A DNA stretch of 32,000 bases, from positions 2,231 through 34,230 of the forward strand of contig CAZKSE010000001.1 in NCBI GenBank assembly GCA_964555305.1, in the 5' to 3' direction. The notes beneath the pieces were generated by a model. It saw only the letters and a program-made list of their open reading frames with translations, ran no database searches and had not been told where the DNA came from. Source of the stretch: an uncultured Rhodobacter sp. GTDB taxonomy: Bacteria; Pseudomonadota; Alphaproteobacteria; Rhodobacterales; Rhodobacteraceae. Shown here piece by piece: positions 1-24,296 of the stretch. Each line of letters opens with the position of its first letter. The stretch's first letter is position 1. Both the position numbers and the translations under genes were made by a program.

Positions 1-1
1 C

Positions 2-1411: not shown

Positions 1412-1428
1412 GTATCTGGATCCAGCCG

Positions 1429-2358: not shown

Positions 2359-2551
2359 ATTGTGAAGTTCATGATATAAATTAGGCTATGGATAGCCGTG
2401 AAGGACAGGTTTCACGGATTAATCAGTGGGTGCGGGCTTGGATCGGGGCCGTTTTGACCGACGTGTGCGGCTGGCCAAATGGACCTTCAGATAAAACTCT
2501 ACGATATAGGTCGACGGCGTTTAAGCCCCCCGAATCGGGACGATCCCACCG

Positions 2552-3466: not shown

Positions 3467-3573
3467 ATGCCCCCCGCAATTTTTCCCGCACTATGTGGCC
3501 GTGAAGGTGGAGCCAGAAAATGACCAGTTGGCTGCTCGCCCCTCCGGGTGGGGTTTCTCGCGGCAGGGTTCTG

Positions 3574-4033: not shown

Positions 4034-4104
4034 TGGGATTCTCCCGGTTGGTGATTGAGGTCGCGCCCTGGCGGACGCGACGGGGAAAGGCGCGGGCCAA
4101 ACGG

Positions 4105-4130
4105 TCATCCCGGCCCCAAGGCCGGGATGA
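4105..4130 (-). terminator. Strong GC-rich hairpin between the DJ-1-like gene and gloA (terminator-like)
   Basis: The sequence tcatcccggcc-ccaa-ggccgggatga forms an 11-bp perfect stem with a 4-nt loop. It lies 58 nt downstream of the 4188 stop on the minus strand. The trailing sequence CCGTTTGG gives only a weak U-tract. Confidence 0.35.
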
Positions 4131-4187
4131 GGCGTTCGGTGGCGGTGGGATGAGGAAGACGGCGCGGTTTCATGGCCATCGCGTATG

Positions 4188-4898
4188 TCACGCAGTAGCC
4201 GTTTGCTCTTTCTGGGCGAGGGCTTCGAGCATCTTCTCTGCAACCAGCGCGGCCGAGGCCGGGTTCTGGCCGGTGATCAGTTTGCCATCGCGCACTGCAT
4301 GTCCCTTGAAGTTGTCCGTGCCCTCGAACTTGGCGCCGAGCTCGCGCAGCCGGGATTCGAGCAGGAACGGCATCACCTCAACAAGCCCAACCGCTTGTTC
4401 CTCTGCATCGGTGAAGGCATTGACGCGAAGGCCTTCGACAACAGGCCGACCGTCGGCCCGCCTGGCTGCGACGAGACCGGCGGGGCCGTGGCACACCGCG
4501 CCGATAATTCCGCCCGCGTCGAAGATCTTGCCGACCAGGGTCGCCAGAGCATCGCTCTTGGGGAAATCGAACATCGTTCCGTGGCCGCCGGCAAGGAAGA
4601 TGCCGTCGAAATCGGCCGGAGACACATCGTCGATCCGCGCCGTTTTCGAAAGCAGCGCCATCGCATGACTGTCGACCAGGAAGCGCGCGACGGGCTCAGG
4701 GCGCTCCGATGGATCGTCCTTGACGCTGGAGGGATCGTATTCGGGGTGTCCGCCCTCGATCGAGGCGATCGTGATCTCGTGACCGGCATCGACCAGTGCC
4801 CAATAGGGCGTTGCCATTTCGTCGAAATAGAAGCCGGTCTTCTTTTCGGTGCTGCCGACCTTGGTATGGGACGTCAACACGATCAGAATTCTTGCCAT
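4188..4898 (-). CDS. DJ-1/PfpI-superfamily (class I glutamine amidotransferase-like) protein, possibly a glyoxalase III-type enzyme
   Basis: 236 aa from the ATG at 4898, with an AGAGGA SD upstream. The ORF-track N-terminal extension is not protein-like. It has the nucleophile elbow GAVCHGPAG, IFLAGGHG, and C-terminal LITGQNPAS. Confidence 0.85.
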   Translation of the reverse strand: MARILIVLTSHTKVGSTEKKTGFYFDEMATPYWALVDAGHEITIASIEGGHPEYDPSSVKDDPSERPEPVARFLVDSHAMALLSKTARIDDVSPADFDGIFLAGGHGTMFDFPKSDALATLVGKIFDAGGIIGAVCHGPAGLVAARRADGRPVVEGLRVNAFTDAEEQAVGLVEVMPFLLESRLRELGAKFEGTDNFKGHAVRDGKLITGQNPASAALVAEKMLEALAQKEQTATA

Positions 4899-4955
4899 TG
4901 TGTTATCCTCTGTTTGAGACAGAGGAACAATGCTTGACTTTGGGCCCGTGCGGAA

Positions 4956-4979
4956 ATTGGAAGTCCCGATAGTTCCAAT
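4956..4979. promoter_or_regulatory. Dyad-symmetric candidate operator upstream of the DJ-1-like gene
   Basis: ATTGGAA-N10-TTCCAAT has perfect 7-bp inverted arms. It lies in the 95-nt gap between the stop of the LysR gene (4994) and the start of the DJ-1-like gene (4898). Confidence 0.25.
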
Positions 4980-4993
4980 CGCGCAGACAATGC

Positions 4994-5914
4994 CTATTGC
5001 GACGAGGCGGCAAAGGCCTTGGAAACCTGGGTGCGGAACCATTGCTGTGCAGGATCGCTATCGGCGACCACGCTCCAGGTCATCAGATTCCTGACCGGCG
5101 GAATGTCGACTGGGCATGGATCGATCTCCAGTTGGCCGATGGCCGCCAGTTTCTCGGCGATGAAATCCGGTATCGTCGCTATCATGTCGTTGTCGGGCAG
5201 AACCGCCAGAAGCAACGCGAAGTTGGAAAGACCGATGGCGACGCGTCTGCTCCGGCCCAGGGCCTGCAACTGATCGTCCACAAAGCCGCAGAGGTCCCCC
5301 CTTGGGGTGACGATGGCATGCGGCCGCACGCAGAAGTCGTCGAGATCGGTGACCGGCGGCTGTCGCGCGTCGCGCAGCACAACCCAGCCCGCATTGCGCA
5401 GCACTTTCATCTTGGCGGTGGCCGGAAGGTTCTCCCGCATATACCCTATCGCGGTCGTGATCTGCCCTGCAGCGAGCATATCCGGGAGCGTGCGATAGTC
5501 ACCGATCCGCACAATGAGATCGCAGCCCGGGGCATGTGCCCTCAAGGTTTGCGTCAGGCTTGGCAGGATCGAGAAAGCGACCGCATCCGTGCATCCGAGA
5601 TGGAATTCGCGGGTGTGCAGGGCAGGATCGAAGTCCAGTGTGGTTCCGACGGCGGCCGAGAGCGCCTCGAGATGAGGTTTGGTGAGCCTGACCAGTTCGA
5701 GCGCCTTCGTGGTCGGCTCCAGGGCGCGGCCATTGCGCACCAACAGTTCATCGCCCAGTGTCTCGCGGAGCTTGGCAAGAACACCCGAGACCGTCGATTG
5801 GGCCAGATGTAACCGTCTGGCGGCGCGGACGGTGCTTTTTTCCTCGACCAGAACCACCAGCGCCGACAAGAGGTTCAGATCGAGATTGCCAAGACTTGTA
5901 CGACTGAATGACAT
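4994..5914 (-). CDS. LysR-family transcriptional regulator
   Basis: 306 aa from the ATG at 5914. The wHTH reads LDLNLLSALVVLVEEKSTVRAARRLHLAQSTVSGVLAKLRETLGDELLVR. Confidence 0.9.
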   Translation of the reverse strand: MSFSRTSLGNLDLNLLSALVVLVEEKSTVRAARRLHLAQSTVSGVLAKLRETLGDELLVRNGRALEPTTKALELVRLTKPHLEALSAAVGTTLDFDPALHTREFHLGCTDAVAFSILPSLTQTLRAHAPGCDLIVRIGDYRTLPDMLAAGQITTAIGYMRENLPATAKMKVLRNAGWVVLRDARQPPVTDLDDFCVRPHAIVTPRGDLCGFVDDQLQALGRSRRVAIGLSNFALLLAVLPDNDMIATIPDFIAEKLAAIGQLEIDPCPVDIPPVRNLMTWSVVADSDPAQQWFRTQVSKAFAASSQ

Positions 5915-5940
5915 GGCTTTCCTTGAAGACGAAAGAATGC

Positions 5941-5957
5941 CGGGGATGACATCCCCG
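5941..5957 (-). terminator. Hairpin plus T-rich tail downstream of the cupin-PfpI-HAD operon
   Basis: The sequence cggggat-gac-atccccg forms a 7-bp stem. On the minus strand it is followed by GCATTCTTTCGTCTTC. It lies 77 nt after the HAD stop (6034). Confidence 0.35.
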
Positions 5958-6033
5958 TCTCCAAGTAATAGCACATTGGATTGCAATCAGAATCCCCTTC
6001 GCGGCGTTGTTCTTGCGTCATCGCGGCGGCGGA

Positions 6034-6777
6034 TCAGGAACTGCCAGCCGCCGTCAACTTCGCGACTTCGGAGAGATGGAGCATGCGCACATCGTGCTCC
6101 GCGGCGACCGCAAGGTCCTCCGGACCGTGGTATCCCCATCCCGCCCATTCGACCCGAACGGGAAGATCGCGGGCATCGAGGATGTTCTCGATGCTGTCGT
6201 CGACGAAAATAATGCCTCCGCCGGCCATGTCCGGGTCATGGTTGACGAGGGCCTGAAGGACATGACGCTTGTTCTTGCACGCCCCTTCGATCCTTGAGAC
6301 CTTTTCGTCCAATCCATGAAGCTTCAGGACCGCCTTGATCGACTCGGCATCCTTTGCAGAGACGATCACGATGTCCTGGCCGGCATTGGTGATCAGTTCG
6401 GCGACCTCGGGATGTACGGTGTGCAGCCCGGTCCACTGGTCATATTGCTGGTCACGCCAGTTGCCCCTGACGCGCTCGGCAACCGCTGCCTGGTCCGCGA
6501 GATCGCGCCTGTGCAGATCGCGGGTGCTCTGGAAGAGCGGCCGGTCGATGCTACCGGGGCGTTCATGGAGAAAGTTGGTGACCATGAAATCATCGAGCGT
6601 GCGGCTGTAAGCGCGAACCTGTCTGAAGGTTTCGATGAACGAATGAGGCACCTCGTCGATCGCATCGGGAAGACGGGGTGCTGCCGCACCCCGTCCGAAT
6701 GGTCCCGCATGCCAGGTTACCGCCGCGCATTCCTGCAACGCGTCGGCAACCACGCCGTCGAAATCAAGCGCGAGCAT
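6034..6777 (-). CDS. HAD-superfamily hydrolase
   Basis: 247 aa from the ATG at 6777. HAD motif I is LALDFDGVVAD (DxDxV). The late motif is IIFVDDSIENI (acidic DD). It overlaps the preceding gene by 14 nt. Confidence 0.75.
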   Translation of the reverse strand: MLALDFDGVVADALQECAAVTWHAGPFGRGAAAPRLPDAIDEVPHSFIETFRQVRAYSRTLDDFMVTNFLHERPGSIDRPLFQSTRDLHRRDLADQAAVAERVRGNWRDQQYDQWTGLHTVHPEVAELITNAGQDIVIVSAKDAESIKAVLKLHGLDEKVSRIEGACKNKRHVLQALVNHDPDMAGGGIIFVDDSIENILDARDLPVRVEWAGWGYHGPEDLAVAAEHDVRMLHLSEVAKLTAAGSS

Positions 6778-7336
6778 ATTGCTTCTCCGAGCTGGCCTCG
6801 GCCGCCCTCGCTTCAACGACCTCGAACATCGTCCGCATGAACTTGCCGACATAGGCGTAATAGGAGCAGGTGATGATGTTGCCATCCGTGACGACATCGC
6901 CATCGATGACATTCGCGCCGGCGTTGATCACATCATCGCGCAGGCCGATATAGGCGCAGGCAGTCTTGTCCCGAAGAACACCGGCGCTGACCATAATCCA
7001 GGGGCCATGGCACAGTCCGGCCACCACTTTTCCGGCGGCGTCCATGCCGCGCACGAAATCCAGAACGGGCTTGACCTGGCGAACGCGGTCGGGGGCTTCG
7101 TGACCGCCGGTGAGCACCACGGCGTCGTAGTCGTCAACGGCCAGATCGTCATAGGAGATCAGGGGTTGGGCGGTCTTGTCCATGGGAAGGGGAACCCCGT
7201 ATTTCCCGATGGTTTCACGGCCGTCCTTGGTGGCGACGTCGACCTCCCAGCCCTCTTCGATGAGGCGGTAATAGGTGTAGATGACGTCGTGGTCCTGGAA
7301 GCCTTGCCCGGTGATGATTGCTGCGCGTCTCGACAT
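6764..7336 (-). CDS. DJ-1/PfpI-family protein (PfpI-type intracellular protease/amidase-like)
   Basis: 190 aa from the ATG at 7336. Motifs are VVLTGGHEAP and the nucleophile elbow AGLCHGPW. The length is typical for this family. Confidence 0.85.
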   Translation of the reverse strand: MSRRAAIITGQGFQDHDVIYTYYRLIEEGWEVDVATKDGRETIGKYGVPLPMDKTAQPLISYDDLAVDDYDAVVLTGGHEAPDRVRQVKPVLDFVRGMDAAGKVVAGLCHGPWIMVSAGVLRDKTACAYIGLRDDVINAGANVIDGDVVTDGNIITCSYYAYVGKFMRTMFEVVEARAAEASSEKQYARA

Positions 7337-7370
7337 GAATTTACCTTTCGTCTTTTGAGGGAGGGGAGGA

Positions 7371-8153
7371 TCAGGCGCCGACAGCTTCGACGCAGAGGTA
7401 GTGCGCATCGGTGTCGACGTTCTCTTTCTCGCGCGCCTGATCGCTCAGGATGATCATGTCGTCGGAGAGCAGAGCGTCGATGCCGAGTTTGATCAGGAAC
7501 GCGCCGTCGGCGATGCTGCGATAAAAGACATCCATTCCAGTCCGGATCGAGAACCTGAACTTCCCGCAAGGGGAGACGGGGCAGAAGCTGGCATTGGGAA
7601 ACTGCGGATGGCGCCGACGACCGGCGGGCAACGGAGTGCCCTCGGGCTCGTACTGCTTTGCAGCGCGATCATAGTTGTCGGCCAGCCGCACAAGATCGAA
7701 TTTGTTCCTCGGCGTTTCCACCTCGATCAGCATCAGCGGCTCGGTGCCGTCATCGCATTTCGTCGCGTGAAAGGCGCCTCGGCCGATGCGCAGGATCGTG
7801 CCCTGGCTGATCGGGACCGAATTCTTGAGGTTGGTGCTGACCCCGGAGCCGGAAAGGCACAGGAGATAAGTGGTCTTGCGGGGATGCGCGTGTACGGAGG
7901 TGGACTGCCCCGGATTGATCTGGAGGTGCCAGATGTCGAGGAAGTCGTCCACAAAGGCGCGATATTCCTGCCCCCAGGGCTTGGTGATCAGCCCATTGAG
8001 ATATTCGTCGCGATCCTGCTGCTCGTTTTCGATGCGGATTCCGCTTTTGAGCAGATCGTTCAAGGCGGAGATGTCCTGTCTGGTGGCATCGATACGAATA
8101 GCGGGATCGATGGGGACGGAGGTGGTGTGTCGCGGGGATATTGCCTCAAGCAT
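7371..8153 (-). CDS. Cupin-domain protein
   Basis: 260 aa with an ATG at 8153 and a TGGAG SD. The KPWGQEY motif is followed by PGQSTSVHAHPRKTTYLLCLSG (cupin motif 1, HxH) and GTILRIGRGAFHATK (motif 2). It is the first gene of a three-gene minus-strand operon. Confidence 0.7.
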   Translation of the reverse strand: MLEAISPRHTTSVPIDPAIRIDATRQDISALNDLLKSGIRIENEQQDRDEYLNGLITKPWGQEYRAFVDDFLDIWHLQINPGQSTSVHAHPRKTTYLLCLSGSGVSTNLKNSVPISQGTILRIGRGAFHATKCDDGTEPLMLIEVETPRNKFDLVRLADNYDRAAKQYEPEGTPLPAGRRRHPQFPNASFCPVSPCGKFRFSIRTGMDVFYRSIADGAFLIKLGIDALLSDDMIILSDQAREKENVDTDAHYLCVEAVGA

Positions 8154-8415
8154 TTGAAACTCCAGTGGTGGTGACAGTCATACTTTTCGAATGCGAAACT
8201 GTGGGCCTCGCCCCTCCCTGCGCCGTCTCGTGGATGTCTACTTGTTCTTTTTCCTCGGTTCTTGGCTCTTCAAGTAAAAGGTATGGCGGATGGTCTTGAC
8301 GGCGGGAAATCGGAAAAGCCGATAGGAATAATTGTGAAACACTGCTTTCCCTCGTGCGCGTGAAGCATTTGTATTGATCGGTATGGCATCGAGTCCTGGG
8401 GCGTTGTTGGACACA

Positions 8416-8441
8416 AGCGCGGCGCGCTGCGACGCCGCGCT
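8416..8441 (-). terminator. GC hairpin overlapping the DUF2274 stop codon (candidate end of the trb operon)
   Basis: The sequence a-gcgcggcg-cgctgcga-cgccgcgc-t forms a 9-bp stem with an 8-nt loop. There is no clear U-tract (TTGTGTCC follows on the minus strand). Confidence 0.3.
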
Positions 8442-8670
8442 ACCGCTGGGTCGCAGTGTTTCTTTTCGCTTTCGAGAACTCGCGATCGGTGGCGATGAAC
8501 CGTTCGAGCATCGGCACGATCAAGCGGCCCGGCTCGATGTCGGGTTGACCTGATTGCCGGGCGAGGATCGCGGCATAGGAAACAAGATCGCGGTGAAGGG
8601 ACGCTGGCAGTTCCACCGTTACCTTTACGGGCTTGTCGTCGGGGAGCGGCCCCAGTTTCAGTTTCGCCAT
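8440..8670 (-). CDS. DUF2274-like small protein that terminates Trb-type T4SS clusters
   Basis: 76 aa from the ATG at 8670, with a GGAGG SD inside the trbI 3' end. The sequence is MAKLKLGPLPDDKPVKVTVELPASLHRDLVSYAAILARQSG. The position immediately after trbI is characteristic. Confidence 0.8.
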   Translation of the reverse strand: MAKLKLGPLPDDKPVKVTVELPASLHRDLVSYAAILARQSGQPDIEPGRLIVPMLERFIATDREFSKAKRNTATQR

Positions 8671-8671
8671 A

Positions 8672-9805
8672 TCAGCCTCCTGTCGGCTCGAACACAAGGT
8701 CACGGGTCACGATGATCCTGACAGGGAAGCCGGGCCGGATGGTCAGCGTCGGCGCGACCTGCAACTGGCGCTGGATGATCTGCTGGCCCGCCTGGTTGAT
8801 GGTGTCCTGCGCCCCGTCGCGGATGGCGCGGATCAGGCGGTCCTCGTCGCTGGTGGCCAGTTCCGCGCCGACCGAAAGCAGGGTCGAGAGGCCGGCGACC
8901 TTCATCAGATCCCACCAGTGATAATCGACGCCATCCTCGAGCCCGGCAAAGCCCGACGCATCCGCGCCCGGCAGGCGCTCTAGGACGATGGAGCGGCCAT
9001 CGGGCAGGATCAGGCGATTCCACACCAGCAACACGCGGCGCTGACCGAAGGTCACGCCGTCATCATATTGCCCGATGATGCGCGTGCCCTGCGGGATCAG
9101 GAGCAGCGAGCCAGTCGGGCTGTCATAGACATTCTCCGTCACCTGCGCGGTGATCTGTCCGGGCAGATCGGAACGGATGCCGGTAATCATCGCGGCCGGG
9201 ATCACGGACCCGGCCTGAAGGATATAGGGCGAGGCCGGCGGCATGACGCGGTCAGGGGCGACGGGCTGCCGGTCGACCGGTCCGTTGAAGAAGGTGGTGT
9301 GCCGATCCTGTGCGCCGACCTGTCCACCAAGTTCAAGACCGGAGAGGCCCGGCATCGTAGTGGCGGCTGTCTGAGGACGCGGCCCGGTCTGGAAGAACAC
9401 GTTGCTCAGACGCGCCGCTTCTTCCTCGGCACGGCGGCGTTCCTCTTCCGGATCGACAGCAGGCGTTGCGATGGCGGGTGGCGCGACCGGCTGTCCGCGC
9501 TCCTGAGCGCTGAGAATCGGACGTCCGAGATCGCCGGGCAGCGCCGGTCCCAGGACGGGGCCGGTATAGTCGCGCGGCAGGCCGGACAGGCCGTCCGCCG
9601 TGGGCCGGTTCTCGGTCGAATAGAGTTCTCCGCCTCCCGGTCCCGCTTCGCGGGTCTGGAGGGCGTAGATCAGTGCCCCGCCGATGCCGAGAAGTGCCAC
9701 TGCGCCCACGCCCGCCAATACCTTGCGGGACAGGCGGGTGACGCGGGGCGGCTCGGCGCGCAGGCGCATGGGCGCGGCGGTGTCGGTGATCGGGTTGTCT
9801 GTCAT
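8672..9805 (-). CDS. trbI: Conjugal transfer protein TrbI (VirB10 family)
   Basis: 377 aa with an N-terminal TM segment (VLAGVGAVALLGIGGALIYAL), a Pro-rich linker and a C-terminal beta-barrel region. ATGA overlap with trbG. Confidence 0.9.
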   Translation of the reverse strand: MTDNPITDTAAPMRLRAEPPRVTRLSRKVLAGVGAVALLGIGGALIYALQTREAGPGGGELYSTENRPTADGLSGLPRDYTGPVLGPALPGDLGRPILSAQERGQPVAPPAIATPAVDPEEERRRAEEEAARLSNVFFQTGPRPQTAATTMPGLSGLELGGQVGAQDRHTTFFNGPVDRQPVAPDRVMPPASPYILQAGSVIPAAMITGIRSDLPGQITAQVTENVYDSPTGSLLLIPQGTRIIGQYDDGVTFGQRRVLLVWNRLILPDGRSIVLERLPGADASGFAGLEDGVDYHWWDLMKVAGLSTLLSVGAELATSDEDRLIRAIRDGAQDTINQAGQQIIQRQLQVAPTLTIRPGFPVRIIVTRDLVFEPTGG

Positions 9806-10848
9806 GACGGGGAGTCTCCGGTGGCTGCGGGCTGAGCGGCGGCCTGCCTTTGCTCGATGCGAACGATCCTCACCACCTGCTGGCGGTTTCCACTGCCAAG
9901 GCGCAGTTCCGCCGCGCCGAACAGGCGATCCACGATCAGGATGTTCTGGTGGATGCGGCTATTGACGATCTGCGGCTCGCCGTCCGAGCCCAGGACGAAC
10001 AGAGGCGGCATCTCGCCCTGCACGATGCCGCGCGGGAAGACGACATAGACGCGGCGGCCGTCGTCGAAGACCGAGATCGGGCGCCATGGCGGATTGTCAC
10101 CTTGCACCTGCAACCCATAGCGATGATTGCGCGCCGAAGGTGCCGGGATGACCGGCGCGGCCGGAGCGGTCTGGCGTTGACTTGCAGGTGGTGTGGGATA
10201 GGCCCAGGCGACGGCAAGCATGTACGGCTCCTCCCGCGCATGCAACTCCATCATGTAGAGGCGGCGATCGGTGGTAACGACGAGGTTGGTCGAAATGTCC
10301 GGTCGGGTCGGCTTGACGAGGATATGGACGCGGGCGTTCGCGCCAGATCCGCTCTCCGTATCGCCGATGATCCAGCGGGCGGTATCGCCAGCGGCGATCG
10401 GCCCCGCGCCGGTCAGGCTTTCGCCGGGCTCCAGCGCAATATTGGTGATCTGCCCCGGCGCGGCATAGACCTGATAGAGCGCGCCCTCCGACCAGGGATA
10501 GATCTGGATGGCGTTGTAATAGCCCTCGCGGCGCGGCTCGACGCGGGCCGCGGCATTGGCGTTTTCGACGCGGGCGGTCGGCGTACCGGCCGCATCGCCG
10601 CCGCGCGCCACGGTCCAGGCCGGGGGCGTGTGCAGCGGCCGGGGACGATCCTCAGTCGAAGCCGCGGGCGGGGCCGGCAGCGGCGGCACAGAGTCGTCAT
10701 AGCTGAACTGCGGAACCCGGTTCGTGGCGCAGCCTGCGAGCATGGTCGCTGACAACACCAAAACCGGAAGGCCGAGTTTGCGTAAATCCGACAAGACGGG
10801 TCCACGGAAAGCCGGAAGCACGGCTTTACGGAAAATCGTGCGGGTCAT
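9802..10848 (-). CDS. trbG: Conjugal transfer protein TrbG (VirB9 family)
   Basis: 348 aa with a lipoprotein-like signal (LSATMLAGC). It sits between trbF and trbI, with ATGA overlaps on both sides. Confidence 0.88.
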   Translation of the reverse strand: MTRTIFRKAVLPAFRGPVLSDLRKLGLPVLVLSATMLAGCATNRVPQFSYDDSVPPLPAPPAASTEDRPRPLHTPPAWTVARGGDAAGTPTARVENANAAARVEPRREGYYNAIQIYPWSEGALYQVYAAPGQITNIALEPGESLTGAGPIAAGDTARWIIGDTESGSGANARVHILVKPTRPDISTNLVVTTDRRLYMMELHAREEPYMLAVAWAYPTPPASQRQTAPAAPVIPAPSARNHRYGLQVQGDNPPWRPISVFDDGRRVYVVFPRGIVQGEMPPLFVLGSDGEPQIVNSRIHQNILIVDRLFGAAELRLGSGNRQQVVRIVRIEQRQAAAQPAATGDSPS

Positions 10849-11534
10849 TGGCTCATCTCCCGCGACCAGGAGATCGCGTTGACATAGATTCCAAGGGGGT
10901 TGGCGCGCAGGCGCTCGGCGTTGCGCGGAGTCTGGACTACGATGGTCAGGATCGCCGTCCAGCGCTCGGTGGTGGAGAGCTGGCCGTTCTCATAGTGGCG
11001 CTCGATCCAGGCGATGCGGAAGCTATCCGGCGATGCCCGGATGACTGATGAGACCTCAACCGCCACCTGTTGGCGGCCGACGCGGGTGAAGGGATCATTG
11101 GCGCGGGCGTAGTCATTGAGCGCCGCCGCGCCCCGGTCGGTGGTGAACTCATAGGCGCGCAGCCAGTTCTGGCGTACGATGATCGCATCGGCGGGGATCG
11201 CGCGGACCTGCTCGATGAACCGGCCGAGATGGAATGCGATCTGCGGATCGGTCGGGCGATAGTCGGTAACGGCCGGCGCGACGGTTTGCGCCTGGCCGAG
11301 ATTGTCGACCTGCACCACCCAGGGCACGACAGTGCCACGCGCCGATTGCCAGACAAGGGCGGCAGCGAAACCGGCCGACAGGATCAGCGAGCCGAAGGCC
11401 ATATAGCGCCAGTTTCTCGCCTGCACGCGGGCGGAACCGATGCGCTCGTCCCAGACTTGCGCGGCCTTCTGGTAAGGTGTCTCGGGTTCCGGCGACTTGC
11501 CGTAATGGGTTGCGGGTCGTCTAAAAAGGTTCAT
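10845..11534 (-). CDS. trbF: Conjugal transfer protein TrbF (VirB8 family)
   Basis: 229 aa. The sequence YQKAAQVWDERIGSARVQARNWRYMAFG is followed by a single TM helix. ATGA overlaps with trbL and trbG. Confidence 0.9.
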   Translation of the reverse strand: MNLFRRPATHYGKSPEPETPYQKAAQVWDERIGSARVQARNWRYMAFGSLILSAGFAAALVWQSARGTVVPWVVQVDNLGQAQTVAPAVTDYRPTDPQIAFHLGRFIEQVRAIPADAIIVRQNWLRAYEFTTDRGAAALNDYARANDPFTRVGRQQVAVEVSSVIRASPDSFRIAWIERHYENGQLSTTERWTAILTIVVQTPRNAERLRANPLGIYVNAISWSREMSQ

Positions 11535-12889
11535 GAGCGGTCACTTTCAGAAAGGCTGACGGAGGAACCACCACCATGGCTGTCACCGGAGCGGACGGCA
11601 TGGGCGGCGGCGGTGACGCCGTGACCCATGGCCCGGCCGCGCTGCATCCGTTGTGCCCAGGCTGGTGGGCCATCGGTGGAGGAGGAATTGGAGGATACGG
11701 GGGTTGCGTTTCCGCCGACTGTCCCCTTCGAGGAGCGACCGCCGGAGGCTTCAAACCCGCCATTGATGCCATCCGAGTAGCTGGATTTCAGGCTGTCGGC
11801 GGCGCGGGAGGCGGCGCGCTTGAGGGGCGAGGCGGTTGCAGCCGCACCCGCGCGGGCAACACCGCCAAGGCCGGAAGGGACACCGGCCGCGCCCGACTGG
11901 CCCATCGAGCCAAGGGTGTAGGCCGACGAGGCAGCGCCGGCGGCAAAGGCCCCGCCACGCGCAAGAGCGGCACCGCCCGAAAGTGCGGCAGCGCCGCCCT
12001 TTGCTGCGAGCATGGTCGCGCCTCCGGCAGCGATTGCCGCTCCGCCTACGGCAAGACCCGTTCCGACGGCTGCGCCGGCGCTGAGTTGCGGACCACCGGA
12101 GACGAGGCCGGTGGCGATGCCGGGGCCGAAGATGCCGAGGCCGAGAAGAGAAAGTGCCGCCAGCACGATCGCCATGGCGTCGTCGATGGTCGGGGTTGCG
12201 CCGCCGAAGCCAGCGGTGAACTGGCCGAAAAGTGTTGAGCCGATGCCGATGATGACGGCGAGGACCAGCACCTTGATGCCGGAGGAAATGACGTTCCCCA
12301 GGACCCGTTCCGCCATGAAGGCTGTCTTGCCGAACAGGCCGAAGGGAATGAGCACGAAGCCCGCCAGCGTGGTCAGCTTGAACTCGATCAGGGTGACGAA
12401 AAGTTGCACGGCCAGGATGAAGAAGGCGAGGATGACCAGCACCCAGGCGAAGAACAGGCAGGCGATCTGGATGAAGTTCTCGAAAAAGGCGATCCAGCCC
12501 ATCAGGTCCGAGATGGAGTCGAGCATCGGGCGGCCAGCGTCGAGACCGGTCTGCGCCACATGGCCGGGCCGCATGAGATCGGCAGCCGAAAAGCCGGTGC
12601 CGGACGCCATCAGCCCGAGGCCGGCAAAGCTGTCGAAGACGATCTGCGCGAGGCTGTTCCAGTTGGAGATGATGTACGCAAAGACGCCGACGAACAGCGT
12701 CTTCTTCACCAGCCGGGCGATGATGTCGTCATCGGCACCCCAGGCCCAGAACAGGGCGGCGAGCGTCACATCGATCACGATCAGCGTGGTGGCAATGAAC
12801 GCCACTTCCCCGCCGAGCAGGCCGAAGCCGCTATCGATATAGCTGGTGAATATGCCAAGGAAGTTGTCGATGACCCCCGTTCCGCCCAT
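11531..12889 (-). CDS. trbL: Conjugal transfer protein TrbL (VirB6 family)
   Basis: 452 aa, polytopic membrane protein with a Gly/Ala-rich C-terminal low-complexity tail. Canonical position. Confidence 0.9.
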   Translation of the reverse strand: MGGTGVIDNFLGIFTSYIDSGFGLLGGEVAFIATTLIVIDVTLAALFWAWGADDDIIARLVKKTLFVGVFAYIISNWNSLAQIVFDSFAGLGLMASGTGFSAADLMRPGHVAQTGLDAGRPMLDSISDLMGWIAFFENFIQIACLFFAWVLVILAFFILAVQLFVTLIEFKLTTLAGFVLIPFGLFGKTAFMAERVLGNVISSGIKVLVLAVIIGIGSTLFGQFTAGFGGATPTIDDAMAIVLAALSLLGLGIFGPGIATGLVSGGPQLSAGAAVGTGLAVGGAAIAAGGATMLAAKGGAAALSGGAALARGGAFAAGAASSAYTLGSMGQSGAAGVPSGLGGVARAGAAATASPLKRAASRAADSLKSSYSDGINGGFEASGGRSSKGTVGGNATPVSSNSSSTDGPPAWAQRMQRGRAMGHGVTAAAHAVRSGDSHGGGSSVSLSESDRS

Positions 12890-12892
12890 GAC

Positions 12893-13174
12893 TCACTGCC
12901 CTCCGTTCGGAGCGGCGGGCACCGGTGTCCGGCCGAGGAAGCGGTCGCGGTTTTCGGCCCAGGCGGCGAGGCAGTCGGCATCGCTGGCCGCGACCTCCCC
13001 AAGTTGCTGGCAGTGGCGGAGGATTGCACGCAATGGATCGGCCGGAGGTTGAAGCGAGGGAGCGGTGCTGACCGGCGCGGGAAGATCTTCGCGGGTCATC
13101 TCGATCATCGTCACGGTGATCGCAATCGCGACAAACACGATCGCCCCAATCCGGGCCAGCACCTTCCCTTCCAT
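12893..13174 (-). CDS. trbK: Putative entry-exclusion protein TrbK-alt
   Basis: 93 aa with one N-terminal TM helix and a strong GGGAGGGAAG SD. It sits between trbJ and trbL. Confidence 0.7.
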   Translation of the reverse strand: MEGKVLARIGAIVFVAIAITVTMIEMTREDLPAPVSTAPSLQPPADPLRAILRHCQQLGEVAASDADCLAAWAENRDRFLGRTPVPAAPNGGQ

Positions 13175-16543: not shown

Positions 16544-16858
16544 ATGATTACGTGCCAGGTCAAATATGTGATCGACGCCGACAAGATCGCGGAGTTCGAA
16601 GAGTATTCCAGAATGTGGCTCAAGCTCGTGCCGCGTTTCGGCGGGACGCATCACGGCTATTTCCTGCCGTCGGAAGGCGCGAGCGATATCGCGCTCGCGA
16701 TCTTCAGCTTTCCGAGTTTTGCCGCCTATGAGCAGTACCGAATGGATGCGGCCAGCGATCCCGACGTGCAGAAGGCGGTTGCGTTCGCCAAGGAGACGCG
16801 TTGCTTCCTGCGCTATGATCGGTCGTTCTTCCGACCGCTTCTGTCCGACGCGGCCTGA
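16544..16858 (+). CDS. NIPSNAP-like dimeric alpha/beta-barrel protein (antisense insertion inside the trb cluster)
   Basis: 104 aa, with an AGGAGA SD 7 nt upstream of the ATG. The sequences KIAEFEEYSRMWLKLVPRFGGTHHGYFLPSEG and FPSFAAYEQYR are typical of the NIPSNAP/ABM-like fold. Confidence 0.7.
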   Translation: MITCQVKYVIDADKIAEFEEYSRMWLKLVPRFGGTHHGYFLPSEGASDIALAIFSFPSFAAYEQYRMDAASDPDVQKAVAFAKETRCFLRYDRSFFRPLLSDAA

Positions 16859-18491: not shown

Positions 18492-18984
18492 CTCGTCCCC
18501 GTTCCACCGGGGAGGCGAGAGAAAAACCCCGGATGGGGATGACTAAAAGAGACCCAAAAGGGGCCGATTCAACAAGTTTCGGTCGTAGTAGTAGTGTGGC
18601 GTGCAAATACAGGAGAACGGCGGGGACCATGTCCCGCCTCCAAGGTTTGAGCGCCCCTGCGCAACCACTCGTTGATTCGATTGGCCCGCTGGACTGACAA
18701 CTTTCGGGATACGCCGGAGACTGGCTACGCATGCGCGACCTGCGTTTGCAACTGCAGCTACCCCGACGTGGAGGCAAGGAAGGGTCGTTCGCGGCGACCA
18801 CAAAGACATTCAACTGCCTTCGGTTGAGTGGTCCTTGAAGCATAGAGCTGCCCCGAGCTTCGACCAGACGCCGTAATCGCGAAAGCGCGGTAGAGCAGAA
18901 CGTCGGTCTTGAACGTGCGATCACACAAGGGCAATCTCGTCGCGATCGAGAGCATGAGAGCAAGTATTCGGGGGTTATTTTTTC

Positions 18985-21003
18985 ATGACTTCGCTACGCC
19001 CAAACCTTGTAAAGCGAATTGAACGCCTGCCCAAACCGACAAATGTAGCTGGAGCCATGCAGCCACTTTTTGAAGCGGTGAGCAATGCCATCCATTCGAC
19101 ACAGTCGCGGTATGGCGATCGTGTGGCGAGCGAAGGGCGTGTCATCGTCACTGTCAACACCAGCAGAAACAAGCAGGACGTCTGGGCAACCGTGGAAGAT
19201 AATGGCGTAGGTCTTGATGATGACAATTGGGATGCGTTCACGACCACGGACACCGACAACAAGATTCAGATCGGCGGCAAGGGTGTCGGCAGGCTAATGT
19301 GGCTGGACTGTTTCGAGGAGATAAGCGTCAACTCAGTTTTCAGGAACAAAGACGGCGGACTTCAGGGGCGGAAGTTTAAGTTCAAGCTTGCGCTGGAAGA
19401 TCAGATTCAGGACCTTGAAGAAGGTGCAGCACCGGATGCTTCCGACAGCGTTTTCCACGTCCGGCTATCAGGCCTCCGCGACAATGGATACCGCGCCAAA
19501 TTTCCCGGTCGCGACAGCTTTGTTTTTCAACACCTCACTTCACACTTCCTGCCAACCTTCATCGGAGGCCGGAGCCCGCAAGTGAGCGTTCATGTGCGTG
19601 ACGAGACTCGCGAGTATCCGAACGCCATCTCTGACATTGTTCACAGGCAGGACAAAGCGATGGCCATCCAAACAGAGGAGTACGGCGATCTGAACCTGAC
19701 CCTGATGGAGTGCGACAAGGTTGCGAGCGCTGACCTCAAAGGGAGGCATTTCGTCCACTTCATTGCGCATGACAGGACGGTCCATTCGCAGAGCATCGAC
19801 GGCAAACTTGGCCTTAGCTATTTCGGCGAAAATAACGACAGGGTGTTCCACGCCATCGTAACCGGTGAGTTCCTGGACACTAATGTCAACCAGGAGCGAA
19901 CGGCATTCATTTTTGAGGACGCTGTGATTGAAAGGATCATCAATGACGTCTGCTCCGAGAGAATTGAAGCGTTCCTATCGGTGCCACTAGCCCTTCTGAA
20001 AGGTGAGCAGCGTGGAACCATAGAGACGATCACTGCAACATATCCTTCTGTTGCGTTTGGGGATGTGGACGAGCTGCAAAAACGCGTCCCTTCAGGGGAA
20101 CTGAAAGCAGATGCGATCTATGGGCATCTCTCCCGTGAACGCTTCCGCCGTGACGAACGACAGGCTGAAAAAATCAGGAGCGTCCTGAATAGGCTCAAAG
20201 AGGGTGTCGCAGACATTAGCACGTTCAGCGCGGCAATCGCCGACGCCAGCACAGCAATAGAAGAGGCGGAGCAGAGGAGTCTTGCTGAGTATATTGTCCG
20301 CCGCAAGGTCGTGCTGGATTTCATCGAAGTCCTTCTTGAGAAGGTCCGTGACGACACCCGCGACAGCTCCTACCAGCGGGAGGACATACTGCACTCGTTC
20401 ATCTGCCCGCTTCGCGTCAGGACCATCGATGGAGGCGGCAGCAAGGTAGAACCTGCAGCGTCACATGACCTATGGATAGTCGATGAGAGGCTGACATTCG
20501 CACAGTACTTCAGCTCTGATGTTGAGTTCCGGAAGCTGTCGGAGGCCGTTGAAAGCGATGAGCGCCCGGATGTCCTGATCTTCGACTATGTGCACGGCCT
20601 GCGGCAGACCGATGAGCCGTCAAAAGTCCTTCTCATTGAATTCAAGCGCCCAGGGCGAACGAATTATACAGAGGAAGAGAACCCGCAATTTCAGGTGGAG
20701 CGTTACGTCAAGCGTCTCCAGAGCGGCGAGCTCTCGGACGTTCGGGGGCGCCCAATAGCGCTGGACCGCAACACGATATTCTACTGCTACATTGTTGCTG
20801 ACATTGTTGGGAAGATGGACACGTGGACGTTCTCGTGGCAGCGAACGGCAGATGGCCGGGGAAGGGTCTACCGGCCCAACAGCGGGTTCCATGGCTCAAT
20901 TGAACTGCTCGGGTGGGATCAACTCATTGGAGATGCCAGAGCACGGAACCAAGCATTCTTCGACCGCGCCGGAATTTCCGGGAACAGCTTCTTCACAACC
21001 TGA
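18985..21003 (+). CDS. Fusion protein: GHKL (Bergerat-fold) ATPase plus a C-terminal RecB-like PD-(D/E)xK nuclease
   Basis: 672 aa. N box is E30-AVS-N34-A (19072-19089). G1 box is D72-N-G-V-G (19198-19212). G2 box is G97-G-K-G-V-G102. The C-terminus has RPD529VLIF, LLIE552-F-K554 and Q570-VER-Y574 (QxxxY), spanning nt 20569-20706. Confidence 0.75.
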   Translation: MTSLRPNLVKRIERLPKPTNVAGAMQPLFEAVSNAIHSTQSRYGDRVASEGRVIVTVNTSRNKQDVWATVEDNGVGLDDDNWDAFTTTDTDNKIQIGGKGVGRLMWLDCFEEISVNSVFRNKDGGLQGRKFKFKLALEDQIQDLEEGAAPDASDSVFHVRLSGLRDNGYRAKFPGRDSFVFQHLTSHFLPTFIGGRSPQVSVHVRDETREYPNAISDIVHRQDKAMAIQTEEYGDLNLTLMECDKVASADLKGRHFVHFIAHDRTVHSQSIDGKLGLSYFGENNDRVFHAIVTGEFLDTNVNQERTAFIFEDAVIERIINDVCSERIEAFLSVPLALLKGEQRGTIETITATYPSVAFGDVDELQKRVPSGELKADAIYGHLSRERFRRDERQAEKIRSVLNRLKEGVADISTFSAAIADASTAIEEAEQRSLAEYIVRRKVVLDFIEVLLEKVRDDTRDSSYQREDILHSFICPLRVRTIDGGGSKVEPAASHDLWIVDERLTFAQYFSSDVEFRKLSEAVESDERPDVLIFDYVHGLRQTDEPSKVLLIEFKRPGRTNYTEEENPQFQVERYVKRLQSGELSDVRGRPIALDRNTIFYCYIVADIVGKMDTWTFSWQRTADGRGRVYRPNSGFHGSIELLGWDQLIGDARARNQAFFDRAGISGNSFFTT

Positions 21004-21044
21004 GTGGCGTCGATAACTCGTCAATATTATGCGCAGGACGATTG

Positions 21045-22400
21045 CTACCAGTATATGGCCACGACCTCCACATCCAAGAGGCTGACATCATCCTCACTGA
21101 TATGGGCGGCGGTGGGCACTGATGCGGAAGGTGCTCCATGCTCCGGTGCAGGCAGATAAGCCAGATCGCTCAAAGAGCGCGCCCGATTGCGGAATTCCAG
21201 ATCCTTCTCCGCACCTATTCTGAATCGCCCGAAGCGCCTTACCTTTTTACCCACCATGTCAAACGCATTCCTCTGGCCCTGTGGGGACGCCATCAGAGGT
21301 GCCGCGCCAAGTATCTCGGCTTCGATCTCCAAGTCCTGGTCTGGCGTAAGGGCCTTCCCAGAATGAGCCAGCAAAAGCTGGCGGTACGTTCGCAGGGCTC
21401 TTGTCAACGCGTTTTCCAGTTGGAGGTGCGATTGAGGCACCGGCTTGGCGCTGAGCGCATATGTTCCCGCAAGGTTTATCTGGTGCAGAAGGTCCGGGGC
21501 GACATCGCGGAACAGGTCCGCCAGCTTCACGGGTGTCCAAGTCTGTTGTAGGCCGTCGCGGGAAACCCTGCAAAGGATGGTGAACTCCGCCTCAGAGAAC
21601 AGGACTCTACGAATGTCCTTCCAATAGGCGAGGTGTTCGGTGACGCCCACGATCGTCAAAGGGCGAACAGGGAGATCGGCGTCTCGAACTGCGTCCTTGT
21701 GCACCACGAAGTCCTCGCCATCCAGGTTGACGACAACCCGATCCACTGCTTCGGCCCGGATAGGAATGAGACCGGCGAGCAGGCGGGTGAGTATCTTGTT
21801 CATCGGCTCTGCGTTCTCGAGCGCGCCGGACCATCCATCGGGGGAGTATTTGTTCGGGAAGTCTTCCGCGATGCTCATGAATTCTGAAAGCATAGTGCCC
21901 ATGTGGAATACCGGGTCGGCCGCCAATCGCACCTTCAGTTCAATCAGTTTCCCGCGCAGGAGGTTCGAAGCCGGAGTTGCCATAGACGGATCCTGAGACC
22001 GCCTGATCGACGCGGCGTCCATAGCGGCAACATCGGTCACGACGCTGATAAGACGAAGGTTCGCTTTACCGTGTAGCTCGCGGAACCAGGACTGCACCGT
22101 GGCCTTGCGCGAGGTCTGGAAAGTACTGCTGTTGGCCGTTTGAAAGCGAGAGGCGAGTTCCGCCTTGCCTATCAAGGCATTTTCGATGCCGGCGACGGTA
22201 CTGGTCTCGACTTCATACCCGTCAATGGACTGGTGCGAAGTGCCTTCGGTCATACCATCGGCCTGCGAAGAGAGCAGGCTTCGAAGACTGACCTCGTCCA
22301 AGTAAACGAACTCACGGAGCGGTCCCCCACTGTTCGGCTTCCGAGGCGCAGGCTTCGGCGCTTTCCTGAACCAGCGCTTCACCCATCCCACGATGCTCAT
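21045..22400 (-). CDS. Hypothetical 451-aa protein, translationally coupled to the upstream AAA+ ATPase
   Basis: The ATG at 22400 overlaps the AAA+ stop as ATGA, and an AGGAGG SD lies 8 nt upstream. It has a basic N-terminus (WVKRWFRKAPKPAPRKP) followed by REFVYLDEVSLRSLLSSQ. I could identify no catalytic motif. Confidence 0.7.
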   Translation of the reverse strand: MSIVGWVKRWFRKAPKPAPRKPNSGGPLREFVYLDEVSLRSLLSSQADGMTEGTSHQSIDGYEVETSTVAGIENALIGKAELASRFQTANSSTFQTSRKATVQSWFRELHGKANLRLISVVTDVAAMDAASIRRSQDPSMATPASNLLRGKLIELKVRLAADPVFHMGTMLSEFMSIAEDFPNKYSPDGWSGALENAEPMNKILTRLLAGLIPIRAEAVDRVVVNLDGEDFVVHKDAVRDADLPVRPLTIVGVTEHLAYWKDIRRVLFSEAEFTILCRVSRDGLQQTWTPVKLADLFRDVAPDLLHQINLAGTYALSAKPVPQSHLQLENALTRALRTYRQLLLAHSGKALTPDQDLEIEAEILGAAPLMASPQGQRNAFDMVGKKVRRFGRFRIGAEKDLEFRNRARSLSDLAYLPAPEHGAPSASVPTAAHISEDDVSLLDVEVVAIYW

Positions 22401-23635
22401 TCGTGCGCCTCCTGGGAACTCCGACTGGGTCGGCTGGATACCCGCTCAAATGCTTGCGCCAAGTCTTCGCCCTCTATCTTGCCCCGGCGATCACCTGCCG
22501 CAACCAATGCGGCCTCCGCCCACAGGGCCCCTAGTTGAGCCGCGGACCAACCCTCGGTTGCTTGAGCCACCTCGCTCAGGGGCAGATCGACGGCCACGTT
22601 GAGGCCTCGCGTCGCTACTTTCAAGATTGCCAGTCGATCGGAAACGTCAGGCATGCCGAATTCGATCTCCCAATCGAAACGCCCGGGACGCGTCAGGGCC
22701 GGGTCCAACGCCTCAACTCGATTGGTGGCCGCGATGACGACTACCGATCTACCCTGGTCATCAAAACCATCCATGAGCGTGAGCAGCTGCGCCACTAGCC
22801 GCTTGGAGGCTTCGTGGGTGTCGCCTGTACGCCGCTCCGCAATGCTGTCTATCTCGTCGAAGAAAACGATCGCGCGACCCGAACGACTTTCTCGTGCGGC
22901 ATCGAATATGCGGCGCAGGATGTCTTCTGTCTCCCCCAGCCACTTGCTGACCACGGAGGGCCCGCTCACGAGGTAGAAATCGGCCTTCGACTCGTGCGCG
23001 ATAATCCTCGCCAAGTGCGTTTTCCCCGTACCGGGCGGGCCGCTGAAGAGCACGCCCTTGACTGGACGCGCCTTAATCTGGTCGAGGTGTCGGCGTCGCT
23101 TGAACTGGGTCTCGATGAGTTCTCGCGCTCGTTTAATCACGTCGGGGTACCCGCCGAAATCAGCAAATGTCGGCCCATCGGACGCTGCGGCAACGAAATA
23201 GTCGTCCGGTCCCTGATCGCTATCTTGGGAGAAACGGCGACTGCGCAGCGGCGTCTGGGACAGGACGCGAATAACCCCCTCCGCGTCGTTGTATTCTATT
23301 GCGTTGTCGGTCTCGACCTTGACCTTCCCGGGGTTCCGAAGAGTCCGGATCCCAAATCCGTCGTCGATGAGCACGGTTCCACCTTCGATCACCTGCCGCA
23401 CGGTTGCGACCGAATTGCTGGCGGCCCAGACCTCTGCAGGAGCAATTTGCCAACCGCCATTGCCCACCAGAATGACATCACCTCGCTCGGGGAGATCATG
23501 GCGAAAGCCGGAGACGCGCAATACTCGGCCGTCCAGCGATCGCGCGTGCAGGACGCCGTTGTCTTCATCGACATGCAACACCTTGAGCAGCATGCCCGCC
23601 ATGGCTTCCAAATCGTCGTCAGCACCTATGCTCAT
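22397..23635 (-). CDS. Classic-clade AAA+ ATPase (Cdc48/FtsH-like single AAA module) with a ~190-aa N-terminal domain
   Basis: 412 aa from the ATG at 23635. Walker A is GPPGTGKT (23018-23041). The pore loop is K-W-L-G. Walker B is IVFFDEID. Sensor 1 is IAATN. The second region of homology is ALDPALTRPGRFD. The 72-aa upstream GTG extension in the ORF track is W/R-rich and was rejected. Confidence 0.85.
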   Translation of the reverse strand: MSIGADDDLEAMAGMLLKVLHVDEDNGVLHARSLDGRVLRVSGFRHDLPERGDVILVGNGGWQIAPAEVWAASNSVATVRQVIEGGTVLIDDGFGIRTLRNPGKVKVETDNAIEYNDAEGVIRVLSQTPLRSRRFSQDSDQGPDDYFVAAASDGPTFADFGGYPDVIKRARELIETQFKRRRHLDQIKARPVKGVLFSGPPGTGKTHLARIIAHESKADFYLVSGPSVVSKWLGETEDILRRIFDAARESRSGRAIVFFDEIDSIAERRTGDTHEASKRLVAQLLTLMDGFDDQGRSVVVIAATNRVEALDPALTRPGRFDWEIEFGMPDVSDRLAILKVATRGLNVAVDLPLSEVAQATEGWSAAQLGALWAEAALVAAGDRRGKIEGEDLAQAFERVSSRPSRSSQEAHE

Positions 23636-23813
23636 CGCGTACCGTCCAAAACAACGGTGTCGATTCCCTGATACACGCTGAACGCACTGGTGGACCTGTC
23701 CGACACTGTCGAGCTTCCGTTTCCAGGAGGTGCCTTCCGCAACAAAAAGGCGGAGTCCGTCTCGCAAGTCTCGCCGAAAATGGTACCATATCTGAACACC
23801 GCCATGTAGAAGA

Positions 23814-24293
23814 TCACGTTCCCTCCACCGTCGGACGATCCATAGCCTCACAGCCTCTTGGCGAAGCGATCCGTGTACCGTGCATGCATAACGCTATCGC
23901 TGCCGCGGATCGGAGACCAACGTGTGAACCGCCGCGGCACTGCGATGGCAACATCGCTCGATCGCTTGACACGGCACATCTCTGCGGCGTTTGCGTCGAA
24001 CTCGAAGTAGGTCGCTGGATTTTTGCAATCTTCCGATTCTCATCGGGCATTGTATTCGGCGCCCCCCTATAGTCTTCACTATATGCATGCGCCAAACCGG
24101 GCGCACTAGATCGAAGCAAGCGCACCACCGATGCGTGCTTTTCCGCCGGGGTAGTTTGAGCTTGAATCTCAGCAATTCGATCTTTCAGGCTACAGTGGTC
24201 CAATAGAACATCAAGATCAACTTTCGACAAGTCATTCAATGCCTTGTGGATTTCTCGAGCCGTCCTGATTGAATTGCGCTCAAACTGCGCCAA
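23814..24293 (-). CDS. Doubtful small ORF (helical N-terminal ~80 aa, low-quality C-terminal half)
   Basis: It has only a TTG start, 3 nt after and in frame with the copG stop, and a weak SD. The first ~80 aa (AQFERNSIRTAREIHKALNDLSKVDLDVLLDHCSLKDRIAEIQAQTTPAEKHASVVRLLRSS) look like a real helical domain. The remainder is Ser/Arg/Cys-rich. Confidence 0.3.
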   Translation of the reverse strand: MAQFERNSIRTAREIHKALNDLSKVDLDVLLDHCSLKDRIAEIQAQTTPAEKHASVVRLLRSSAPGLAHAYSEDYRGAPNTMPDENRKIAKIQRPTSSSTQTPQRCAVSSDRAMLPSQCRGGSHVGLRSAAAIALCMHGTRIASPRGCEAMDRPTVEGT

Positions 24294-24296
24294 TGT

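Follow-up and report, generated by a model that had tools for sequence, protein, structure and literature searches.

What does a protein that joins a GHKL ATPase to a nuclease in a single polypeptide do on a conjugative element of an alphaproteobacterium? The question is raised by a gene located at positions 18985-21003 of a 32,000-nucleotide stretch of DNA from an uncultured Rhodobacter sp. (GenBank assembly GCA_964555305.1, contig CAZKSE010000001.1, positions 2,231 to 34,230; hereinafter, the window, in the numbering of which all coordinates are given). A preliminary description, made from the sequence alone, proposed such a fusion, and both halves of that proposal are supported here, the ATPase half by motifs, Pfam matches and structure comparison with Foldseek, and the nuclease half by motifs and sequence profiles. 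We consider it quite likely that the gene encodes an autonomous, single-protein defense nuclease of the paraMORC3 or GHKL-type (type I-D) Shedu family that travels as cargo of the conjugative element. The domain identities, the conservation of the motifs and the membership in this family were established by the comparisons described below. The gene and its features are listed here, with conservation given across an alignment of 69 full-length homologues that diverge to a mean identity of 30%.

18985-21003, plus strand: complete open reading frame (ORF) of 672 amino acids (aa) encoding the GHKL ATPase, transducer, helical arm and PD-(D/E)xK nuclease (ORF list, homologues)
18985-19509, plus strand: GHKL ATPase domain of the Bergerat fold, about aa 1-175 (approximate boundary; Pfam HATPase_c, structural model, Foldseek)
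19072-19086, plus strand: GHKL motif I, E30-A-V-S-N34, with the predicted catalytic Glu and Mg-binding Asn (conservation; aligns with E27 of a Vibrio homologue)
19198-19212, plus strand: GHKL motif II, D72-N-G-V-G76 (DxGxG), with the predicted adenine-binding Asp (D72, G74 and G76 invariant)
19273-19290, plus strand: GHKL motif III, G97-G-K-G-V-G102, Gly-rich ATP lid, followed by the invariant R103 (conservation)
19510-19914, plus strand: transducer domain, about aa 176-310, similar to the MutL S5-fold and Hsp90 middle domains (Foldseek)
19897-19899, plus strand: R305, candidate sensor of the ATP gamma-phosphate, in a transducer loop modelled at low confidence (invariance)
19915-20349, plus strand: long charged helical arm, about aa 311-455 (helices in the model; L433, Y436 and R440 conserved)
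20350-21000, plus strand: predicted C-terminal PD-(D/E)xK nuclease domain, about aa 456-672 (profile evidence; distant relative of the Shedu (DUF4263) core)
20380-20394, plus strand: E466...H470 in the first nuclease helix, E466 being the upstream E of E-D-ExK (both residues 69/69)
20569-20571, plus strand: D529, predicted catalytic Asp of the PD-(D/E)xK motif (69/69; aligns with the canonical Shedu Asp)
20638-20646, plus strand: E552-F-K554, predicted ExK catalytic motif (aligns with E-I-K of Shedu and with E554/K556 of the Vibrio homologue)
20692-20706, plus strand: Q570-V-E-R-Y574, RecB-like QxxxY helix motif (Q570 aligns with a conserved Shedu Gln)

The ATG start of the ORF is backed by homologues that share the consensus N-terminus MTSLRPNL, and all the motifs named in the preliminary description (E30xxxN34, D72-N-G-V-G76, G97-G-K-G-V-G102, D529, E552-F-K554 and Q570xxxY574) are present in the translation. 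The residues N34, D72, G74, G76, G100, G102, R103, D529 and K554 are invariant in the alignment, and E30 (68/69), E552 (68/69), Q570 (67/69) and Y574 (64/69) are nearly so, with G97 and K99 retained in 66 and 67 sequences, respectively, and G98 and D500 in at least 90%. Invariance extends beyond the motifs that were initially read, to R103, R305, R440, E466, H470, W497, S511 and D512. Thus, the motif residues are either invariant or at least 90% conserved and, judging from the alignment, the conservation of the set is far beyond chance. The His that ends motif I (NAIHS) in place of the usual Asp, initially noted as a deviation worth checking, is real but is not a peculiarity of this copy: the position is occupied by His in 34 of the 69 sequences, Gln in 20, Asp in 5, Asn in 3 and Met in 2, so that the replacement of the usual GHKL Asp by His or Gln is a trait of the entire family.

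The N-terminal half of the protein is readily assigned. Pfam HATPase_c matches aa 25-105 with 29.2 bits against a cut-off of 26.4, and among the divergent relatives 58 of the 69 match HATPase_c and 55 match HATPase_c_3; searches of the PDB by sequence and profile, with the single protein and with the full-length profile, yielded weak GHKL matches only. The full-length AlphaFold2 model is confident over residues ~10-420, with predicted local distance difference test (pLDDT) values of 80-93 over aa 10-300. In Foldseek comparisons, residues 1 to ~420 of the model match the N-terminal plus middle domains of TRAP1/Hsp90, the MutL LN40 fragment, MLH1, TopoVI-B and SMCHD1 with E-values of 1e-10 to 1e-9, in alignments of ~370-425 columns that cover the whole of MutL LN40 (GHKL plus S5-fold) and the N-terminal plus middle domains of TRAP1/Hsp90. 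These matches support the Bergerat fold and indicate that residues 1 to ~420 consist of a GHKL ATPase and a transducer domain followed by a helical arm. Accordingly, much of what had been set aside as an unclassified middle region of ~350 aa is a standard GHKL transducer, with the arm following it. The helical, charged segment predicted at aa 380-460 is borne out by the AlphaFold2 helices at residues 312-352, 375-405, 411-427 and 433-455. We also considered a histidine kinase as the source of the HATPase_c match and rejected this reading, given that the model is structurally closest to Hsp90, MutL and TopoVI-B with their transducers and that no Pfam histidine-kinase dimerization domain was detected. 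Within the transducer, both R264 and R305 are conserved; by analogy with R380 of Hsp90 and K307 of MutL, which sense the gamma-phosphate, R305 may be the sensor of the ATP gamma-phosphate. The helical arm is a probable lever or clamp that links the ATPase and the nuclease.

The C-terminal domain is far more divergent from known families. The C-terminal third of the window protein showed no direct match in any library searched, and a profile of this region alone found nothing in the PDB. When 34 C-terminal crops of family members were compared with Pfam, the families matched by more than one crop were HSDR_N (8 members), PDDEXK_9 (5), SduA_C (4), HSDR_N_2 (3), NERD (2) and Uma2 (2), along with DUF6826 (2), the sole family in this set outside the PD-(D/E)xK superfamily; SduA_C is matched at E<=1 by these 4 of the 34 members only, at best with an E-value of 1e-4. 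A profile of canonical Shedu, built from 13 nuclease domains encoded on annotated plasmids, was then aligned with the nuclease domain using hhalign, resulting in a probability of 78.6% and an E-value of 1.7e-5 over 146 columns, in a register that places D529, E552xK554 and Q570 opposite the Asp, E-I-K and Gln of Shedu. Whereas this alignment scores 43.5, 150 column shuffles gave 14.0 +/- 2.3, at most 22.1, and reversing the template gave 13.8; the alignment is about 13 standard deviations above the shuffles. A comparison with one lone canonical Shedu sequence gave no signal (probability 0.15%), an under-powered test that is superseded by the 13-sequence profile. The SduA_C family showed no match at E<=10 to the window protein's C-terminal domain or to the Vibrio GHKL homologue (canonical Shedu scores 90.8 bits), and none of the 24 PADLOC SduA models matched the window protein even at E<=10 (canonical Shedu scores up to 565 bits), so that membership in Shedu is remote. 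No Shedu homologues were found in viral contigs.

Because the first full-length model was built on a shallow alignment and was unreliable over residues 425-672, this region was re-modelled alone with a 111-sequence alignment, yielding a pLDDT of 77.9 and a predicted template modelling score (pTM) of 0.78. In the new model, E552 and K554 lie on a strand, Q570 and Y574 on the next helix, and E466 and H470 on the N-terminal helix. The structure search did not provide significant confirmation of the PD-(D/E)xK fold: Foldseek returned no match at E<=0.001 for the nuclease domain, the best PDB match being McrC (E-value 0.02), with SgrAI and Cas4 also among the top, non-significant matches, and no significant match in BFVD. 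Hence, the case for the nuclease half rests on sequence profiles. The ordered motif set that was initially read in this region is kept across the family as E-D-ExK-QxxxY, invariant or nearly so, and together with the profile comparisons supports the prediction of a PD-(D/E)xK nuclease, distantly related to the Shedu core, in the C-terminal ~215 aa.

The family to which the preliminary description compared this protein, the prokaryotic paraMORCs, proved to be the right one. The paraMORC3 group was defined as a GHKL domain combined with an S5 domain and a C-terminal restriction endonuclease (RE)-fold nuclease with the E-D-ExK signature and RecB-like affinities (Iyer, Abhiman and Aravind 2008, Biol Direct 3:8; PMC2292703). 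In the same analysis, paraMORC3 was found sporadically in proteobacteria (frequently) and in Bacteroidetes, was described as laterally mobile, with the nuclease-bearing members standing alone without conserved neighbors, and the paraMORC families were reported to lack the MORC-specific motif (PMC2292703). Compared by description, the window protein matches this account point by point (GHKL, S5/transducer, E-D-ExK nuclease, standalone, mobile), and no defining difference was found. GHKL Shedu proteins, in which a HATPase_c_3-type GHKL domain and an Hsp90/MORC-like middle ('N24') domain are fused to the nuclease, have since been classified as type 1D (Gu et al., bioRxiv 10.1101/2023.08.10.552793).

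The preliminary description further stated that few such proteins had been tested, which no longer holds for the family. VcSduA of Vibrio cholerae (A1552VC_00276), a GHKL plus DUF4263 protein 'previously annotated as paraMORC3', was shown to be anti-phage, protecting against T1-like phages and vibriophage X29 at all multiplicities of infection in a non-abortive manner (Adams et al. 2025, PMC12137116). Defense is lost in the E27A and K557A mutants, that is, neither the Glu of the ATPase nor the Lys of the nuclease is dispensable; VcSduA on its own protects Escherichia coli; and the protein is predicted to have a clamp-like middle region and to form a dimer rather than the Shedu tetramer (PMC12137116). 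A search of the literature turned up no biochemical or structural study of any GHKL-type Shedu. Our comparison was made with a full-length, 672-aa homologue encoded by an IncC plasmid of Vibrio fluvialis (tblastn 2e-57; identity ~28-30%), in which the equivalents of E30 and K554 are E27 and K556 (E27 and K557 in VcSduA); its gene is located in a defense island, next to a type I restriction-modification (R-M) system and a canonical Shedu gene. The window protein shares with VcSduA and type I-D Shedu the three-part layout of GHKL, Hsp90/MORC-like middle and PD-(D/E)xK domains, and differs in that it is encoded on an alphaproteobacterial conjugative element. With canonical Shedu SduA (DUF4263/SduA_C, e.g. 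that of Bacillus cereus), the common features are a distantly homologous nuclease core and the organization of a single-gene defense nuclease with an N-terminal regulatory region, which is an ATPase in the window protein but a passive sensor in Shedu. The resemblance to MutL, MORC, Hsp90/TRAP1 and TopoVI-B lies in the Bergerat fold and the transducer, at 10-15% identity, with the family mostly having His or Gln three residues after the motif I Asn, and the nuclease is predicted to be of the PD-(D/E)xK type, unlike the C-terminal metal-site endonuclease of MutL. The HsdR N-terminal domain, McrC and the RecB/Cas4-type nucleases share the order E...D...ExK...QxxxY; the recurrent HSDR_N and PDDEXK_9 matches are weak, and no match reaches a family threshold, a likeness at the superfamily level only.

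The family is large and uniform in architecture. More than 700 relatives were recovered with a word-indexed search; the 120 best of these are 72-92% identical to the window protein and are named at most 'ATP-binding protein'. An exhaustive profile search of 1.84 billion cluster representatives recovered 2,702 clusters (50% identity) at E<=1e-3, of which 866 reach E<=1e-30. With few exceptions, the proteins are 655-700 aa long and align over their full length, so the architecture is fixed. Of 185,579 species genomes, at least 590 contain a homologue; the published estimate is ~1.2% of genomes (PMC12137116). In 46 of 48 genomes, the gene has a lower GC content than its flanks. The closest relative is 91-92% identical at the protein level and 81% at the DNA level, with a ratio of nonsynonymous to synonymous substitution rates (dN/dS) of 0.028 at a dS of 1.77, which is near saturation; even between alphaproteobacterial orders, the proteins remain 72-92% identical. 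Thus, the gene was horizontally acquired and is subject to strong purifying selection. Purifying selection of this strength is unusual for a presumed defense gene that also moves among unrelated sites without conserved flanks.

The window itself holds a Trb-type conjugative element that encodes TrbB-C-D-E and downstream Trb proteins, TraG, and a relaxase with a DUF3363 domain; the same element, with an identical protein, recurs in several metagenome samples. The gene for the GHKL-nuclease is located between trbB and the ribbon-helix-helix (RHH) and traG genes, in a low-GC cargo island that it shares with a pair of genes assigned by Pfam to DUF6414 and AAA+. In a related element with a Trb system and a DUF3363 relaxase (about 3000-13000 in its loci L102-L105), an operon of four genes that encode an SNF2 helicase, an N6/N4 methylase, a GHKL-nuclease of this family (P0408) and a ResIII/RE-endonuclease occupies the same slot upstream of trbB, with ArdA encoded upstream. 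This slot looks like a defense-cargo hotspot of the element family. Relatives of the window protein at 92%, 87% and ~75% identity are encoded by lone genes in unrelated housekeeping neighborhoods, with no recurring neighbor. Among the other distant members, one adjoins a Type ISP enzyme and others are found among HNH, KptA, NADAR and transposase genes.

Conjugative plasmids account for 29 of the 55 plasmid records with a homologue and include octopine Ti plasmids. In the octopine-type Ti plasmid NC_002377.1, a 69%-identical copy (117136-119166) is annotated 'ATP-binding protein' and is flanked by genes for VapC, ScpB-like, PIN, trypsin-like peptidase and TIR proteins, a neighborhood that looks like an unannotated defense island. 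A distant homologue (22% identity, E-value 9e-23, aa 70-664) was detected in phage vB_RanS_PJN03 (ON245412.1, 40028-41836) under a feature named 'N-acetylmuramoyl-L-alanine amidase', which is probably a misannotation, and another family member (P0382) comes from a contig labelled Caudoviricetes; given these homologues, phages may carry the family too.

ATP-driven dimerization through the N-terminal domains is the shared mechanism of GHKL-transducer ATPases, and a mechanism for the window protein can be proposed along these lines. Upon ATP binding, two copies would pair via their GHKL domains, presumably in the geometry of a dimeric clamp, with E30 acting as the general base, N34 binding Mg, D72 binding adenine and G97-G102 forming the lid; that the window protein binds and hydrolyzes ATP is predicted by analogy with the loss of defense in the E27A mutant of VcSduA. 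The transducer would sense the nucleotide state, probably via R305, in the role suggested by Hsp90 and MutL, and the long helical arms could form a clamp or lever around DNA. The ATPase cycle would then license the C-terminal nuclease (E466, D529, E552, K554, Q570 and Y574), which would directly cut invading phage or other foreign DNA and leave the host alive; a signal to be sensed and a specific DNA substrate are presumed in this scheme.

Several observations weigh against the assignment of the window protein to defense by a GHKL-type Shedu. All Shedu models, SduA_C and the 24 PADLOC SduA models alike, fail on it, the structure search leaves the nuclease fold short of significance, and the strand that carries D529 is modelled at low confidence. 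The connection to VcSduA runs through the V. fluvialis proxy and published statements. Furthermore, fast-evolving defense genes are not typically found alone among housekeeping genes or under purifying selection as strong as this. A different affiliation has also to be considered, in which the protein belongs to an independent GHKL-nuclease lineage rather than to true Shedu and would function as a dimeric DNA clamp of the MutL/MORC kind, driven by ATP and equipped with its own HsdR/RecB-like nuclease. Bearing on this are the failure of the Shedu hidden Markov models, the preponderance of HSDR_N over SduA_C matches among the C-terminal crops (8 and 4 of the 34), and the fact that DNA clamps and chaperones are the proteins structurally closest to the N-terminal half; we regard this affiliation as rather unlikely. 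If it were correct, the protein would trap DNA in an ATP-gated manner, perhaps by sensing its ends or topology, as opposed to the tetramer-based activation of canonical Shedu, and the housekeeping-like purifying selection in Alphaproteobacteria could mean DNA surveillance that is broader than phage defense.

The autonomous defense role itself has to be weighed against three other functions. The presence of P0408 in the SNF2 helicase/methyltransferase/ResIII operon and of another member next to a Type ISP enzyme, along with the report that paraMORCs occur mainly in R-M contexts and might have unlinked partners (PMC2292703), would fit an ATPase-nuclease subunit of a multi-gene, R-M-like system, the genes for its partners (helicase, methylase and endonuclease) being located elsewhere in the host. 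This appears quite improbable considering that the window clade and its closest relatives are solitary, that for most such genomes the search of Iyer et al. for unlinked R-M partners was unsuccessful (PMC2292703), and that VcSduA by itself protects E. coli (PMC12137116). Alternatively, the protein might serve the mobile element, either by competing against plasmids and integrative conjugative elements (ICEs) or by stabilizing the conjugative element as a toxin of the addiction or abortive type. The location in a cargo slot of a Trb-type element that holds a homologue in a related element, the share of conjugative plasmids among the homologue-bearing records and the VapC, PIN and TIR genes near the Ti copy are all compatible with such a role; nevertheless, many copies are chromosomal and located off recognizable mobile elements, there is no conserved antitoxin-like partner, and protection by VcSduA is non-abortive (PMC12137116). 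We consider service to the element improbable, with the qualification that it overlaps the defense reading because defense cargo is common on mobile elements and benefits both parties.

Finally, the structural similarity to MutL, MLH1 and TopoVI-B, the low dN/dS at saturated dS, the 72-92% identity maintained across alphaproteobacterial orders and the solitary placement of some copies among housekeeping genes could all be explained if the protein were a housekeeping enzyme of DNA repair or recombination, a MutL- or TopoVI-B-like ATPase equipped with its own nuclease, and not an immune protein. Such an enzyme would hardly be expected to show the patchy, accessory distribution of this family (at least 590 of the 185,579 species genomes here, and ~1.2% of genomes in PMC12137116), the foreign GC content in 46 of 48 genomes, and the presence of members on plasmids, in ICEs and in defense islands; with the anti-phage role demonstrated experimentally for one member of the family, VcSduA (PMC12137116), this possibility is very improbable. 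Thus, an autonomous defense nuclease carried by the conjugative element remains the explanation that we favor.

The locus is not a discovery in itself because proteins of this kind were predicted in 2008 and one was validated as anti-phage in 2025. What makes it valuable is that it helps to close an annotation gap and raises the mechanistic question of how an Hsp90/MutL-like ATPase gates a nuclease. NCBIfam and PADLOC (PADLOC-DB v2) showed no match to the window protein, and Pfam matches its GHKL domain only; consequently, censuses of defense systems under-count the family, in particular, on conjugative elements and Ti plasmids. The mapped conserved residues, including R305, E466 and H470, are concrete targets for mutagenesis, and the alphaproteobacterial clade, being unusually conserved, is a good candidate for biochemistry.

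The remaining features of the cargo island and of the rest of the window are as follows.

18492-24296, no strand: low-GC cargo island between trbB and the RHH/traG genes (GC 0.571, against 0.655 and 0.660 in the backbone)
21045-22400, minus strand: DUF6414 protein (Pfam E-value 3.8e-50)
22397-23851 by ORF, minus strand: AAA+ ATPase, with a later start in other gene calls (412 aa), resembling IetA and CDC48/FtsH-type AAA+ proteins
23814-24293, minus strand: 159-aa ORF with no family match, not called by gene callers on identical contigs
16544-16858, plus strand: small NIPSNAP-family gene (as called on identical contigs), between trbE and trbD, against the otherwise co-directional trb operon
8-1411: B12-binding radical SAM protein, in the left-end low-GC stretch
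1429-2358: homoserine O-succinyltransferase, in the left-end low-GC stretch
2388-3014: 208-aa protein with no family match, in the left-end low-GC stretch

The AAA+ and DUF6414 genes (21045-23851, minus strand) overlap by 4 bases. The reported make-up of the Dodola defense system is a DUF6414 protein and an AAA+ ATPase. None of the PADLOC Dodola models matches either protein of the window, and the pair may be an undescribed Dodola-like variant. We considered, and rejected, a functional unit of the GHKL-nuclease with the adjacent DUF6414 and AAA+ proteins: the pairing was seen in this element only and is absent from the relatives at 92%, 87% and ~75% identity. A mobile cassette with terminal repeats was likewise rejected, given that nucleotide similarity starts at the ATG and stops inside the ORF and that there are no flanking repeats. 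A scan for promoters and terminators near the gene found nothing above the expectation from shuffled sequence. The stretch of ~660 bases upstream of the AAA+ gene (23640-24296) is probably non-coding or regulatory. At the left end of the window, positions 1-3000, outside the transfer genes, form a second low-GC stretch (0.49-0.54).

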